From Actinomycetota bacterium (GTDB lineage Bacteria; Actinomycetota; Geothermincolia; Geothermincolales; RBG-13-55-18), in contig JASEFK010000006.1 of the NCBI GenBank assembly GCA_030019255.1, positions 154,553 to 218,552 of the forward strand: a stretch of 64,000 nt of DNA. Reading direction: 5' to 3'. The position numbers and the translations under genes are program-made. Every line of letters starts with the position of its first letter. Within the stretch, counting starts at the first letter, position 1. This document shows, piece by piece, positions 6,845-28,174 of this stretch. The notes under the pieces were generated by a model that ran no database searches, was not told where the DNA came from, and saw only the letters and a program-made list of their open reading frames with translations.

Positions 6845-8608
6845 ATGACCGAGGACCTGGACCGGATAAGCGAGGCGCGCCGTGCCTGGGAGGAGGGGCC
6901 CCTGGCCAAGGCCCTCCAGAGGTTCCCCTACCTGAACAAGGACAGCTGCCGCTTCTACACTCCCCTGGACATCGAGCCCTTCGACTTTTTGGAGAAGGTC
7001 GGCTTCCCGGGCACCTACCCCTTCACCGCCGGCACCTTCCCCATCGAGCCCATGGCCGGCCTGGCCCGCCTGGCCTCCCTGGCCGGGGGAAAGGGGGAGA
7101 TACCCGGGGCCGGTGGCCAGACCCGCGCCGCCATCTACTCCGGGTACGGCACCCCGGAGGACACCCGGGACTACTACAGGGGCCTTATCGAGCAGGGGGG
7201 ACGGGGAGGTCCCAACCTGGCCTTCGACCTCCCCACCCAGTGCGGCTACGACTCCGACCATCCCCTGGCCGAGGGGGAGGTGGGCAAGGTGGGGGTGTGC
7301 GTGGACACCCTGGCCGACTTCGAAATCATCTACGAACCCTACCGAGGGGACCTCGACCTGGACCGCATCGCCTCCAACTTCACCATCAACGCCCCGGCCA
7401 ACGTGATCATCGCCATGTACGCCGCCCTGGCCGAGAAGCGGGGCATACCCCTGGAAAAGTTGCGGGCCACCCCCCAGAACGACATCCTTAAGGAGTACAT
7501 CGCCCGGGGGACCTATATCTTTCCCCCGCGGCACGCCCTGCGCATGTTCCGGGACAGCCTGGTGTTCATCACCCGCCACATGCCCAACGTGAACATCACC
7601 AGCATCGGCGGCTACCACATCCGGGAGGCCGGGGCCACCCGGGAACAGGACCTGGCCTTCTCCATGGCCATCGCCATCGAGTACCTCAGGGTGGGGGTGG
7701 ATGCAGGCCTCCAGGTGGACGAATTCGCCCCCCGCTTCACCTTCAATGCCTTCGGAGGCTCCATGGAGATGCTCAAGGAGATCGCCTTCCAGCGGGCGGC
7801 GAGGCGCATGTACGCCAGGATACTGAAGGAGCGTTTCGGGGCCCGGGACGAGCGGAGCATGCGCATCCGCCAGGCCCTGGGGGCTCACATCGGGCCCTCC
7901 TCCACCACCCTACAGCGCCCTCTGAACAACCTCACCCGGGCGGTCATCGGGGCGGTGGCCAGCGCCCTCTCCGGCGGCCGGCCCCTCCCCTTCCCTCCCT
8001 ACGACGAGCCCCTAGGCCTGGGGTGGAGCCTGGAGGCCCTCCAGCTGGCCCAGGACGCGGGAAGGATCATCGCCTGCGAGGCGCGGCTCCTCGAGTATGC
8101 CGATCCCTTCGCCGGCTCCTACTGCATGGAGTCCCTCACCGACGAGATCGAGAGCGCCGCCTGGGAGGAGCTGGAGAAGATAGAGAAGATGGGCGGGGCG
8201 GTGGCGGCCATCGAGAACGGCTACATGCAGAGGGAGATATCCCGCAGCGCCTACGAGCGCCAGCGGGCCATGGAGCGGGGGGAGAGGCTGGTGGTGGGGG
8301 TGAACTGCTTCACCGGGGAGCACGAGCTGGAGGTGACCACCAACCGGCTGGTCCCCAACCCCTACGACCCCGAGAGGAGGGAACGGGCGGAGGAGAGGCA
8401 GAAGGCCCGCCTTTCGGAGATCAAAAGGTCCCGGGACAACCGGGAGGTGGCCCGGCTCCTCCGGGAACTGGAGGCCCTGGCCAAGAGGGAGGAGGAGAAC
8501 CTCATCCCTCACCTCATCCAGTGCGTCAAGGCCTACGTGACCGAGGGGGAGATATGCGAGGTGCTGCGGGGAGTCTTCGGGGAGTACCAGGCGGTCTCCC
8601 CCTTCTGA
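6845..8608 (+). CDS. divergent acyl-CoA mutase large (substrate-binding TIM-barrel) subunit, methylmalonyl-CoA-mutase family, lacking a fused B12 domain
   Basis: 587 aa. The first half ...YTPLDIEPFDFLEKVGFPGTYPFTAGTFP...AFDLPTQCGYDSDHP... and the C-terminal half with the acidic/Arg-rich coiled tail (LIPHLIQCVKAYVTEGEICEVLRGVFGEYQAV) match the MCM alpha / IcmA architecture. The canonical FTRG(P/V)Y-P-MY motif is replaced by FTAGTFPIEPM. AAAGGGGGA RBS 4 nt before ATG 6845. The B12 domain is encoded separately at 10937. Confidence 0.75.
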   Translation: MTEDLDRISEARRAWEEGPLAKALQRFPYLNKDSCRFYTPLDIEPFDFLEKVGFPGTYPFTAGTFPIEPMAGLARLASLAGGKGEIPGAGGQTRAAIYSGYGTPEDTRDYYRGLIEQGGRGGPNLAFDLPTQCGYDSDHPLAEGEVGKVGVCVDTLADFEIIYEPYRGDLDLDRIASNFTINAPANVIIAMYAALAEKRGIPLEKLRATPQNDILKEYIARGTYIFPPRHALRMFRDSLVFITRHMPNVNITSIGGYHIREAGATREQDLAFSMAIAIEYLRVGVDAGLQVDEFAPRFTFNAFGGSMEMLKEIAFQRAARRMYARILKERFGARDERSMRIRQALGAHIGPSSTTLQRPLNNLTRAVIGAVASALSGGRPLPFPPYDEPLGLGWSLEALQLAQDAGRIIACEARLLEYADPFAGSYCMESLTDEIESAAWEELEKIEKMGGAVAAIENGYMQREISRSAYERQRAMERGERLVVGVNCFTGEHELEVTTNRLVPNPYDPERRERAEERQKARLSEIKRSRDNREVARLLRELEALAKREEENLIPHLIQCVKAYVTEGEICEVLRGVFGEYQAVSPF

Positions 8609-8612
8609 TTGC

Positions 8613-8638
8613 GGCGGAAGGGGGGGCGGCCTTCCGCC
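8613..8638 (+). terminator. GC-rich hairpin (9-bp stem GGCGGAAGG/CCTTCCGCC, 8-nt loop) 5 nt after the mutase large-subunit stop, with no U-tract
   Basis: Read directly: 8613-8621 GGCGGAAGG, loop gggggcgg, 8630-8638 CCTTCCGCC. It sits between the mutase large subunit and the radical-SAM gene. Confidence 0.35.
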
Positions 8639-26829: not shown

Positions 26830-26833
26830 AAAC

Positions 26834-28174
26834 TTGTTCAAGCGAGTGCTCATCGCCAACCGCGGCGAGATAGCTCTGCGTATTCTCCGGGCCTGCAGGC
26901 TCCTGGGCCTGGAGACGGTAGGGATCTACTCCAAAGCCGATTCCGACGCCGTACACCTGAAATACGTGGACCGGAAGGTGTGCGTCGGTCCGGCCGCCAG
27001 CGGAGAATCCTACCTGAACATCCGGAACATCATCGGTGCTGCGGAGATCAGCGGCGCTGACGCCGTCCACCCGGGATATGGCTTCCTGGCGGAAAACGAG
27101 GAATTCGCCCGAGCCTGCCAGGAAAACGACCTGGTCTTCATCGGGCCCTCCCCGCAGGCCCTGGCCCTGATGGGCCACAAGGCCAAGGCCCGGGAGACCA
27201 TGGCCGAAGCGGGAGTTCCGGTGCTGCCCGGCCTCACCTCGTCCGACCTGGACGAGTCCACAGCCCTCAAGGTGGCCGACGAACTGGGTTACCCCATCCT
27301 GATCAAGGCCTCCCTGGGGGGAGGGGGTAAGGGTATGCGCGTGGTCCACGACCGTCAGGAACTGGTAAAGGCCTTACCCCTGGTCAAGGCGGAGGCCAGG
27401 CATGCTTTCGGATCCGAGGAGATTTACTTGGAAAAGTTCCTGCGCCGGGCCCGCCACGTGGAGATACAGGTCCTGGGCGACAGGCACGGCAAGGTCATCC
27501 ACCTGAACGAGAGGGAATGCTCTATCCAGAGGAGGAACCAGAAGCTGGTGGAGGAAGCGCCTTCCCCCGCCGTGAATTCCGAGCTGCGAAAGAGGATGGG
27601 CGAGGCGGCGGTGCGGGGCGCCGCGGCCATCGGCTACGACTCCGCGGGGACTATGGAGTTCCTCTTGGACGAGGAGGGGAACTTCTACTTCATGGAGTTC
27701 AACGCGCGCATCCAGGTAGAGCACCCGGTCACCGAACTGATAACCGGCGTGGACCTGGTGGTGGAACAGATACGCAACGCCATGGGAGAGCCCATGTCCC
27801 TGAACCAGGAGGACATCCGGGTGAACGGCCACGCCATCGAGTGCCGCATCAACGCCGAAGATTATCACCGCGACTTCCTTCCCACCCCCGGGATAATCGA
27901 GAAGTGGACGCCACCGGGCGGACCCCACGTGCGCGTGGACACCCACTGCTACCAGGGTTATCACGTGTCCCCCAACTACGATTCCCTGCTGGCCAAGCTC
28001 ATCGTACACGGCCGGGACCGGGAGGAGGCCCTGCGCATCCTGGAGCAGGCCCTGCGGGAGTTCGAGATAGAGGGGGTCTCCACCCTCATCCCCTTCCACC
28101 TGCGCCTGCTCTCCAACCCGGACTTCCTGGCCGGGAACTACCATACCCGCTGGGTGGAACAGGAGATGTTCTGA
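26834..28174 (+). CDS. pycA: biotin carboxylase (ATP-grasp) subunit of the two-subunit pyruvate carboxylase / biotin-dependent carboxylase
   Basis: MFKRVLIANRGEIALRILRACRLLGLETVGIYS...GYGFLAENEEFA...GGGGKGMRVV...EMNARIQVEHPVTE... is canonical biotin carboxylase. TTG start 4 nt after the pycB stop. Confidence 0.85.
   Translation: MFKRVLIANRGEIALRILRACRLLGLETVGIYSKADSDAVHLKYVDRKVCVGPAASGESYLNIRNIIGAAEISGADAVHPGYGFLAENEEFARACQENDLVFIGPSPQALALMGHKAKARETMAEAGVPVLPGLTSSDLDESTALKVADELGYPILIKASLGGGGKGMRVVHDRQELVKALPLVKAEARHAFGSEEIYLEKFLRRARHVEIQVLGDRHGKVIHLNERECSIQRRNQKLVEEAPSPAVNSELRKRMGEAAVRGAAAIGYDSAGTMEFLLDEEGNFYFMEFNARIQVEHPVTELITGVDLVVEQIRNAMGEPMSLNQEDIRVNGHAIECRINAEDYHRDFLPTPGIIEKWTPPGGPHVRVDTHCYQGYHVSPNYDSLLAKLIVHGRDREEALRILEQALREFEIEGVSTLIPFHLRLLSNPDFLAGNYHTRWVEQEMF

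Follow-up and report, generated by a model that had tools for sequence, protein, structure and literature searches.

A probable (1-methylalkyl)succinate synthase (mas/ass) locus for anaerobic alkane activation in a Candidatus Solincola-type actinobacterium

Activation of alkanes by addition to fumarate drives the biodegradation of oil in reservoirs, seeps and contaminated aquifers, and most of what is known of the pathway comes from Desulfobacterota, a few Betaproteobacteria and Firmicutes. We analyzed a stretch of 64,000 nucleotides (referred to below as the window) from an Actinomycetota assembly (GCA_030019255.1, contig JASEFK010000006.1, positions 154,553 to 218,552 of the forward strand), which carries a 21-kb block of genes around a glycyl radical enzyme (GRE) of 830 amino acids (aa). 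The region is very probably a mas/ass locus of a 'Candidatus (Ca.) Solincola'-type actinobacterium, the products of which would activate n-alkanes by fumarate addition and carry out the first steps in processing the product.

The accepted ass/mas pathway leads from fumarate addition through CoA activation and rearrangement by a mutase to decarboxylation (PMC6776118), which is the logic that the initial annotation of the window, made from the nucleotide sequence with no database searches, had laid out for these genes. The study of the cryo-EM structure of the (1-methylalkyl)succinate synthase (MASS) of strain HxN1 (PDB 9o8u; PMC12358834) gives Arg492, Glu690, Thr598, Phe600, Trp185 and Phe192 (HxN1 numbering) as key residues, and describes an active site of the benzylsuccinate synthase (BSS) type by Gln707, Asn615, Ser199 and Tyr179. 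In structure 9o8u, the C-terminal tail of the MasE subunit touches the glycyl radical domain. The clusters of Desulfoglaeba alkanexedens contain assABCDE, masE, mutase subunits, a 'LAO/AO transport ATPase' and an MmgE/PrpD gene, and the second cluster has a carboxyl transferase in addition (PMC7180275). Among Actinobacteria, fumarate addition has been reported once, for 'Ca. Syntraliphaticia', an uncultured thermophilic lineage said to degrade paraffins by this route (summarized in PMC8878594), and Actinobacteria were dominant on C22-C30 paraffins in a related enrichment study in which assA was not amplified with standard primers (PMC7138878).

Genes in the window were called by combining open reading frame (ORF) analysis with third-position GC content (GC3), which gave clean calls at ~64% G+C and a strong third-position GC bias, and domains and families were assigned to the ORFs with Pfam and NCBIfam models and their cut-offs. 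All genes listed in the initial annotation were recovered where it had placed them (Table 1). In a search against all PDB sequences, the GRE matched MasD of strain HxN1 (9o8u_A) over its full length with 1128 bits (59% identity), compared with 559 bits for BSS (39% identity to BssA) and 344 bits or less for each of HypD, CutC, isethionate lyase, glycerol dehydratase, PFL2 and HPAD. The radical Gly804 is located in an RIAGYS motif, and a single catalytic cysteine, Cys469, is located in the Cys loop HQACMSP. Alignment to MasD showed that the fumarate-binding residues Arg484 and Glu680 are kept, as are all four residues that distinguish MASS from BSS (Glu680, Thr589, Phe591 and Trp177). At the positions of BSS Gln707 and Asn615, the two BSS positions that were mapped, the enzyme has the MASS-type Glu and Thr. 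Among the pocket residues checked, the single difference is Ile184, where MasD has Phe192 at the distal end of its alkane pocket.

The window GRE shares 61-65% identity with its counterparts in Desulfothermus naphthae and Desulfoglaeba alkanexedens, both cultured alkane degraders, and in Desulfatibacillum and Smithella metagenome-assembled genomes (MAGs). In a BssA-rooted neighbor-joining tree, the window GRE, the Ca. Geothermincola enzyme and two sequences from Thermodesulfobacteriota MAGs formed a group that was sister to the clade of AssA/MasD from cultured alkane degraders. Scores and tree agree in placing the enzyme with MasD/AssA and not with PFL, choline lyases or glycerol lyases, a clustering that the initial annotation had regarded as fatal to its proposal of a fumarate-adding GRE; that proposal is supported here by orthology to MasD/AssA, by the accessory subunits and by the matching neighbors. 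We assign the 830-aa GRE as the predicted alpha subunit of a (1-methylalkyl)succinate synthase, orthologous to MasD/AssA. The substrate had initially been given as unknown. The active site is alkane-type and narrows the predicted substrate class to alkanes, though not to a chain length.

Besides the alpha subunit, the locus encodes beta, gamma and three delta-like proteins. The initial annotation had counted two small Cys-rich proteins and made its reading dependent on their kinship with BssB/BssC-type subunits; there are five such proteins (beta, gamma and three delta-like paralogues), which are homologous to MasB, MasC and MasE. In the 99-aa beta subunit, C28, C31, C47 and C68 align with all four cluster cysteines of MasB (C32, C35, C51 and C86), and the protein matches MasB and not TutG. 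The 51-aa gamma subunit matches TutF (2e-6) besides 9o8u_C and, as had been noted initially, its gene is located after the activases. The 59-aa delta-like protein has its best match to the rubredoxin domain of MasE, keeps the CxxC...CPxC motif and has no tail, whereas the MasE alignment of the 75-aa paralogue (37% identical to the 59-aa protein) extends into the C-terminal tail and includes the tail motif PWG(L/K)S. The third delta-like protein, of 115 aa, is 38% identical to the 59-aa paralogue over the rubredoxin domain. In its AlphaFold2 model (pLDDT 81), a three-helix bundle comes after a zinc-ribbon/rubredoxin-like domain, and the top PDB fold match of the model is MasE (9o8u_D). A second masB-like gene (76% identical) is found after the third delta-like gene in the related locus of MAG SURF_21 (L054:16041-16337; labels of L plus a number denote the loci compared), so the accessory subunits of this lineage have undergone yet more duplication.

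The two activating enzymes (AE1 and AE2) are paralogues with 44% identity, and AE1 consists of a radical SAM domain and two ferredoxin-type motifs. AE2 is present in only some of the related MAGs (L003, L004, L007, L008, L009 and L054). The duplicated activases had been taken for a departure from known clusters, but tandem activases also occur in the Desulfatibacillaceae-type loci L015 and L020.

The gene arrangement around the GRE did not arise by chance, since the block is syntenic in at least six Actinomycetota MAGs and its core recurs beside assA in several phyla. A tblastn comparison of all window proteins with 75 loci and their ±10 kb flanks recovered the whole 21-kb block in synteny in six or more Actinomycetota MAGs besides the window. 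The full block is present in identical order in L003, L004, L007 and L054: mutase–radical SAM-PDZ–B12 subunit–PrpD–ligase–crotonase–alpha–beta–delta–delta–AE(s)–gamma–delta3–BirA–BioY–PycB–PycA–EamA. L010 and L049 keep this order with one activase, and L049 is also without the third delta-like gene. Even the EamA transporter at the end of the block keeps its position across the Actinomycetota loci, with 67-85% identity. In the Ca. Geothermincola locus L008, the ass genes are accompanied by ligase, crotonase, mutase and PrpD genes in a rearranged set; the mutase is only 44% identical, and tblastn found neither a radical SAM-PDZ gene nor Pyc genes in it.

Outside the phylum, eight Desulfobacterota loci (L014, L015, L020, L026, L029, L031, L032 and L063) have the core mcmS-mcmL-(MeaB)-prpD-AE-masB-masC-masD-masE-(delta3)-...-crotonase-ligase, so that the synteny comparison suggested in the initial annotation finds the core shared with at least eight Desulfobacterota loci. 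A PrpD homologue adjoins assA in Desulfobacterota, Firmicutes and Dehalococcoidales loci, and the window ligase is 39-41% identical to ligases of Desulfobacterota ass loci. The view that order and composition differ from known operons thus needs qualification, as the co-localization of ass genes with mutase, PrpD and ligase genes is normal in Desulfobacterota (see also PMC7180275).

As for the host lineage, a protein identical to the radical SAM protein of the window is labelled 'Candidatus Solincola sp.' at NCBI, and the GRE is 97% identical to the copy in a Ca. Solincola quzhuomuensis MAG. The exact GRE sequence is also present in NCBI assembly GCA_030024025.1 and in one Logan assembly. In a genome scan, GREs of 86-98% identity were found only in Actinomycetota MAGs (including Ca. 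Solincola and Ca. Geothermincola), followed by GREs of 73-74% identity in a Deltaproteobacteria MAG; those of Syntrophaceae, Smithella, Desulfobacterales and Dehalococcoidales MAGs are 55-64% identical, and Chloroflexota MAG copies 45-59%. G+C content drops to 58-62% over positions 16000-24000 (GRE, subunits and activases), compared with 65-69% in much of the remaining window. This dip and the nearest non-actinobacterial GREs (70-74% identical, from Thermodesulfobacteriota/Deltaproteobacteria MAGs) are consistent with a horizontal origin of the mas core. The name 'Ca. Syntraliphaticia' reportedly goes back to work of Liu et al. in 2020 (Environ Sci Technol) in which related Actinobacteria were enriched on long-chain paraffins.

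The large subunit of the split mutase passes the acyl-CoA mutase model TIGR00641 (482 bits, cut-off 304) and fails the methylmalonyl-CoA mutase (MCM) equivalog model NF006944 (391 vs 876 bits), and its closest relative with a solved structure is HcmA. Identity to the assA-adjacent mutases of Desulfobacterota amounts to 57-64%. The substrate-carboxylate Tyr and Arg of MCM are kept along with the GYH motif, and these two carboxylate-binding residues are what a predicted substrate with a free carboxylate requires. Because AHIGxSS replaces the CQTSG motif of MCM in all ass-linked mutases across phyla, we assign these mutases by motif to a distinct subfamily of acyl-CoA mutases.

The radical SAM-PDZ gene, as the initial annotation had seen, lies between the genes for the large and small mutase subunits. 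The protein has the CxxxCxxC motif in the form CSCRCRFC, and among ass loci it is restricted to Solincola-type Actinomycetota, where homologues of 50-72% identity are encoded between or beside the mutase genes. Homologues of 40-48% identity occur in L077, L078, L080, L083 and, weakly, L082, which are acyl-CoA metabolism contexts without a GRE (mutase, PrpD, carboxyltransferase, CoA-transferase, TRAP transporters and electron-transfer flavoprotein (ETF)/acyl-CoA dehydrogenase genes), and those of 33-39% identity (L084 and L085) are in unrelated contexts. The GRE-free loci of the first group suggest a general module for the catabolism of substituted succinates. MeaB/ArgK homologues were found in seven Desulfobacterota ass loci, and the 'LAO/AO transport ATPase' of D. 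alkanexedens is presumably MeaB, which is commonly mis-annotated under that name. No MeaB/ArgK homologue was found in the window or in any examined locus that has the radical SAM-PDZ gene, although the rest of these genomes may carry MeaB. This complementary distribution suggests, but does not show, that the radical SAM-PDZ protein serves the mutase. It is possible that the protein is tied to the mutase module and replaces a MeaB-type helper.

The radical SAM-PDZ homologues found range from 432 to 797 aa overall. Upstream of the radical SAM core, the N-terminal third of the window protein (positions 8741-9580) is rich in Pro, Gly and Arg and has an internal duplication, LL(R/E)(D/N)LLS(I/L)...(E/R)VEV(E/D)GFR, that matches no Pfam family. 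Four of the homologues (L077:6311-8179, L078:10001-11863, L080:6435-8237 and L083:10001-11803) have no GRE within 10 kb, and the taxa concerned are Chloroflexota, Dehalococcoidia and unassigned metagenome contigs. L077 and L078 combine mutase, PrpD, carboxyltransferase and CoA-transferase genes; L078 has a TRAP transporter as well, and its mutase large subunit is 64% identical to that of the window. In the Dehalococcoidia-type loci L080 and L083, a carboxyltransferase or mutase is accompanied by acyl-CoA dehydrogenase and ETF genes.

The PrpD-like protein fails the PrpD equivalog models by a wide gap (45 vs 950 bits and 26 vs 575 bits) and can be placed in the MmgE/PrpD superfamily but no more narrowly. 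Its nearest solved structures are iminodisuccinate (IDS) epimerase (2hp0, 214 bits) and IRG1/CAD. Free di- and tricarboxylic acids are the substrates of MmgE/PrpD-family enzymes, and in the case of IDS epimerase it is the substituted carbon of a succinate that is inverted. No CoA_transf_3-type racemase was found in the window. In strain HxN1, the two alkylsuccinate diastereomers differ at C2 of the succinate, which was ascribed to 'an unknown epimerase' (PMC12358834). Since IDS epimerase is the nearest structure, the HxN1 epimerase is unidentified (PMC12358834) and the window is without a CoA_transf_3-type racemase, we propose the PrpD-like protein as a candidate (1-methylalkyl)succinate epimerase.

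The crotonase-fold protein had been annotated as an enoyl-CoA hydratase, a label that does not hold, as one catalytic Glu is absent and no hydratase model reaches its cut-off. The protein is in fact below the cut-off of every NCBIfam hydratase or decarboxylase model, including the methylmalonyl-CoA decarboxylase model NF008506 (193 vs 257 bits). The catalytic glutamates of the hydratases are Glu144 and Glu164 of the rat enzyme. When aligned with E. coli ScpB, the window protein has Ala (MPPARLG) in place of the second of these, its ass-linked homologues have Ala, Val or Thr there, and the Desulfobacterota homologues have Asn in place of the first. The equivalent of ScpB Tyr140 is invariant in all ass-linked crotonases. 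No 12S carboxyltransferase (PF01039) was found among the window ORFs scanned. Given the lost catalytic Glu, the retained Tyr140 and the lack of a 12S carboxyltransferase among these ORFs, the crotonase is probably an (alkyl)malonyl-CoA decarboxylase and not a hydratase.

The orthologues of the 115-aa delta-like protein look like a Sec/Cys (Sec, selenocysteine) family that has gone unrecognized, with a putative small selenoprotein in Desulfobacterota ass loci. In seven non-actinobacterial ass loci, the gene has an in-frame TGA at codon 24-26 that aligns with the first Cys of a CC pair, which is invariant in Actinomycetota, and with a Cys in the Chloroflexota locus L070. The reading frame is conserved for ~90 further codons past the TGA, and positions +10 to +30 from the TGA hold a conserved 7-bp hairpin, three pairs of which show compensatory changes. 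Gene callers split or truncate the TGA-bearing genes (e.g., P0258). The window protein has seven invariant Cys, and the invariant CC of Actinomycetota is located in a loop. The family is small, with 28 clusters at 50% identity in a set of 1.84 billion proteins. A universally essential role for the Sec or Cys in the loop was considered and rejected, as several members have no Cys there. Among the papers searched, none joins 'selenoprotein' with 'alkylsuccinate synthase'.

PycB and PycA, whose gene begins 4 nt after the pycB stop, are predicted to form a two-subunit (alpha4beta4-type) ATP-dependent pyruvate carboxylase. The initial annotation had rightly seen this pair as pyruvate-carboxylase-like (both subunits pass the family models) but had offered it for the (de)carboxylation step; refilling of oxaloacetate and fumarate is likelier than decarboxylation of alkylmalonyl-CoA. 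PycB as part of an oxaloacetate decarboxylase Na+ pump or a transcarboxylase was rejected, as the biotin carboxylase gene directly adjoins and neither oxaloacetate decarboxylase beta and gamma subunit genes nor a 12S subunit gene were found among the window ORFs scanned. The likeliest role of PycAB would be the replenishment of oxaloacetate, and hence of fumarate. A competing explanation is that PycAB-BirA-BioY is a housekeeping anaplerotic unit that sits beside the cluster by descent and has no specific role in the alkane pathway. The unit is absent from the core ass loci of Desulfobacterota and from the Ca. Geothermincola locus, and both Pyc subunits are ordinary members of the pyruvate carboxylase/AccC families. 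Its position, however, is kept in all Solincola-type loci, even where identity of the neighboring proteins has dropped to 50-70%. Moreover, locus L012, which has the closest non-actinobacterial GRE, carries a pycB-like gene of 58% identity ~3 kb from that GRE, and each alkane activated consumes a fumarate that needs replenishment. We regard the housekeeping explanation as a serious one that falls somewhat short of probable.

The substrate itself could be different from what we propose, in that the GRE might add fumarate to a hydrocarbon other than an n-alkane (e.g., cycloalkanes, iso-alkanes or alkyl side chains), which the cluster would then degrade. The GRE group to which the window enzyme belongs, together with the two Thermodesulfobacteriota MAG sequences, is indeed sister to the cultured AssA/MasD clade and not within it, and Ile in the place of MasD Phe192 alters the pocket, but the remaining alkane-type residues that were checked (Trp177, Phe591, Thr589 and Glu680) are kept, and the identity of 59-65% to validated alkane enzymes stands against 39% to BssA. 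Related Actinobacteria, moreover, were reportedly enriched on long-chain paraffins by Liu et al. in 2020. We consider a substrate outside the n-alkanes improbable. It is also conceivable that the mutase, PrpD, ligase, crotonase and radical SAM-PDZ genes form an independent module for imported substituted succinates or branched dicarboxylates that is loosely coupled to the GRE. A related mutase (64%), PrpD and radical SAM-PDZ do occur with no GRE within 10 kb in L077 and L078, where the neighbors include TRAP dicarboxylate transporters, CoA-transferases and carboxyltransferases. Yet more than 15 loci from several phyla, besides the window, have the module immediately next to assA, and the two explanations need not conflict, as a substituted succinate is what the GRE would produce. 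Loose coupling seems unlikely, if less so than a different hydrocarbon substrate.

Several points, in addition to the Ca. Geothermincola locus without PycAB, weigh against an alkane pathway as we reconstruct it here. The window crotonase keeps the first hydratase Glu, and ScpB His66 is absent from the ass-linked crotonases, which have Met or Tyr instead. The cluster itself contains no beta-oxidation set and no fumarate-regenerating enzymes. A recent description of a Ca. Solincola genome, that of Ca. Solincola uaceae, reports a Wood-Ljungdahl pathway and does not mention alkane, fumarate, glycyl or hydrocarbon (PMC12917137, 2026). Finally, everything that goes past sequence homology is inference, and what we propose for the PrpD-like protein, the crotonase and PycAB is hypothetical.

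With these points in mind, a route for n-alkane activation and processing can be drawn up. By homology, AE1 and/or AE2 would place the glycyl radical on Gly804 of the alpha subunit, Cys469 of the alpha-beta-gamma-delta enzyme would abstract a hydrogen from the alkane, and the alkyl radical would add to fumarate held by Arg484 and Glu680, yielding (1-methylalkyl)succinate. Gene content and the pathway of HxN1 and AK-01 suggest for the following steps that the PrpD-like protein may epimerize C2 of the free alkylsuccinate, that the AMP-forming ligase may convert the alkylsuccinate to its CoA thioester, and that the split B12 mutase may rearrange this to (2-methylalkyl)malonyl-CoA. The ScpB-like crotonase might then produce 4-methylalkanoyl-CoA for beta-oxidation encoded elsewhere. 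PycAB, biotinylated by BirA with biotin acquired via BioY, might convert pyruvate to oxaloacetate and so refill the C4 pool for fumarate. That all parts hold jointly, namely Ca. Solincola-type hot-spring Actinomycetota, to date portrayed as acetogen-like with a Wood-Ljungdahl pathway, as alkane oxidizers, a PrpD-type epimerase, a crotonase-type decarboxylase, a radical SAM-PDZ protein in place of MeaB, and a three-group delta family that includes a selenoprotein in Desulfobacterota, is a tentative picture and, as a whole, a rather doubtful one.

Table 1. Features of the mas/ass locus, of distant oxidation genes in the window and of related TGA-bearing genes (positions refer to the window unless a locus label is given).
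Feature	Position	Strand	Supporting matches and remarks
Acyl-CoA mutase large subunit, putative (1-methylalkyl)succinyl-CoA mutase	6845..8608	+	PF01642 6e-137; longest ORF from 6815
Radical SAM + PDZ protein (+ weak DUF512), between both mutase genes	8741..10840	+	Pfam Radical_SAM, PDZ_6, DUF512
B12-binding small subunit of mutase	10937..11353	+	PF02310 2e-23; TIGR00640 169 bits (cut-off 57); longest ORF from 10883
MmgE/PrpD-family protein, IDS-epimerase-like	11402..12763	-	Pfam MmgE_PrpD_N and _C
AMP-forming acyl-CoA ligase (AssK-like)	13481..15031	+	PF00501, PF13193; NF004837 501 bits (cut-off 476)
Crotonase-fold protein	15291..16091	+	PF00378
GRE, predicted alpha subunit, 830 aa (MasD/AssA orthologue)	16749..19241	+	PF02901 (PFL-like) + PF01228 (Gly_radical)
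Beta subunit (MasB-like), 99 aa, [4Fe-4S] high-potential iron-sulfur protein (HiPIP)-type	19306..19605	+	PDB 9o8u_B 9e-12
Delta-like rubredoxin-type protein, 75 aa	19624..19851	+	PDB 9o8u_D 5e-6
Delta-like rubredoxin-type protein, 59 aa	19855..20034	+	PDB 9o8u_D 2e-10
Glycyl-radical activating enzyme 1 (AE1)	20119..21057	+	TIGR02494 345 bits (cut-off 174)
Glycyl-radical activating enzyme 2 (AE2)	21067..21996	+	TIGR02494 333 bits (cut-off 174)
Gamma subunit (MasC/BssC/TutF-type), 51 aa, [4Fe-4S]	22139..22294	+	PDB 9o8u_C 1.4e-11; PF08201 (precomputed annotation)
Third delta-like protein, 115 aa, rubredoxin-like domain + three-helix bundle	22633..22980	+	
BirA biotin-protein ligase, 261 aa, no helix-turn-helix domain	23182..23967	-	PF03099; TIGR00121 96 bits (cut-off 83)
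BioY biotin transporter component	24220..24822	+	PF02632 6e-38
PycB: 5S-type carboxyltransferase + biotin carboxyl carrier protein	24916..26829	+	NF006761 827 bits (cut-off 402); HMGL-like, PYC_OADA, Biotin_lipoyl
PycA: biotin carboxylase	26834..28174	+	NF006367 677 bits (cut-off 597)
EamA-family transporter	28284..29180	-	PF00892
Acyl-CoA dehydrogenase with 118-aa N-terminal extension	43697-45193		
'FixCX' pair	45218-47051		FixX-like = 92-aa ferredoxin, by Pfam only
115-aa-type delta-like genes with in-frame TGA (other loci)	L020:13459-13794, L026:12833-13168, L029:11623-11970, L031:6538-6873, L056:9579-9899, L062:7360-7689, L063:12013-12357		

Promoter-like hexamers, as consensus matches only, are present upstream of the mutase, the ligase and the GRE. 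Scanned with Rfam at gathering thresholds, the whole window gave no riboswitch or other RNA family, including no cobalamin riboswitch upstream of the mutase, and a tRNA scan of the window found none. A 128-aa ORF at 19848-20234 was rejected as a gene, as it overlaps the real 59-aa delta-like gene in a different frame.

A second group of genes with the appearance of acyl-CoA oxidation is located at 42303-48526 and consists of a CCG-domain Fe-S oxidoreductase, an acyl-CoA dehydrogenase, a ferredoxin, a flavoprotein and a FAD_binding_4 oxidase, with no ETF genes beside it. The acyl-CoA dehydrogenase and 'FixCX' that the initial annotation had counted as downstream parts of the pathway are present, but they lie ~15 kb off, behind transporter, peptidase, methyltransferase and ABC genes, and we rejected them as members of the cluster. 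The FixC label itself falls below the cut-off (NF007542, 77 vs 610 bits), and the best match of the protein, to the geranylgeranyl-reductase family, is also below cut-off. These genes were not seen in the related loci, where flanks of ±10 kb would not reach a distance of 15 kb. An AddAB/AdnAB-type pair at 48669-55546 (a PD-(D/E)XK nuclease of 1080 aa and a UvrD helicase/nuclease of 1212 aa) is unrelated to the cluster.

With a complete and syntenic mas/ass locus, found in MAGs of Ca. Solincola and Ca. Geothermincola, a deep hot-spring and subsurface actinobacterial lineage joins those with a predicted capacity for fumarate addition. Moreover, since the locus is compact and is without the usual racemase, MeaB and 12S carboxyltransferase, it narrows the candidates for epimerization, mutase support and decarboxylation. 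'Ca. Syntraliphaticia', as far as it is described in the summary in PMC8878594, offers a likeness as an uncultured thermophilic actinobacterial lineage credited with fumarate addition.

The predicted enzyme resembles HxN1 MASS (masBCDE + masG; cryo-EM 9o8u, PMC12358834) in its four subunits and in all metal ligands, and the two have in common the catalytic Gly and Cys, the fumarate Arg and Glu, and the pocket Trp, Phe and Thr. It differs in host (Actinomycetota in contrast to Betaproteobacteria), in gene order (D-B-delta-delta-AE-AE-C-delta in the window and B-C-D-E...G in HxN1), in having three delta-like paralogues where HxN1 has one, in having two activases, and in Ile at the site of HxN1 Phe192. 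Unlike the window, the HxN1 gene list from masA to masG includes no mutase, PrpD or ligase. In this respect the locus is closer to the Desulfoglaeba alkanexedens ALDC/Desulfatibacillum type, in which assA/B/C/D and masE are found with large and small mutase subunits and MmgE/PrpD; the Desulfobacterota MAG loci examined also carry a CoA ligase and a crotonase. The Desulfobacterota clusters have a MeaB/ArgK-type GTPase and no radical SAM-PDZ gene, whereas the reverse is true of the window, and they are without the PycAB/BirA/BioY genes that the window has. The 115-aa delta-like gene has an in-frame TGA in Desulfobacterota and a Cys codon in the window. BSS (BssABC/TutDGF) has the superfamily, the chemistry and a homologous gamma subunit in common with the window enzyme, but the window alpha subunit is only 39% identical and has a MASS-type pocket, the beta subunit is of the MasB type, and a delta subunit, which BSS does not have, is present. 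The locus thus falls within the known mas/ass cluster type, as an actinobacterial representative with modest variations particular to its lineage.

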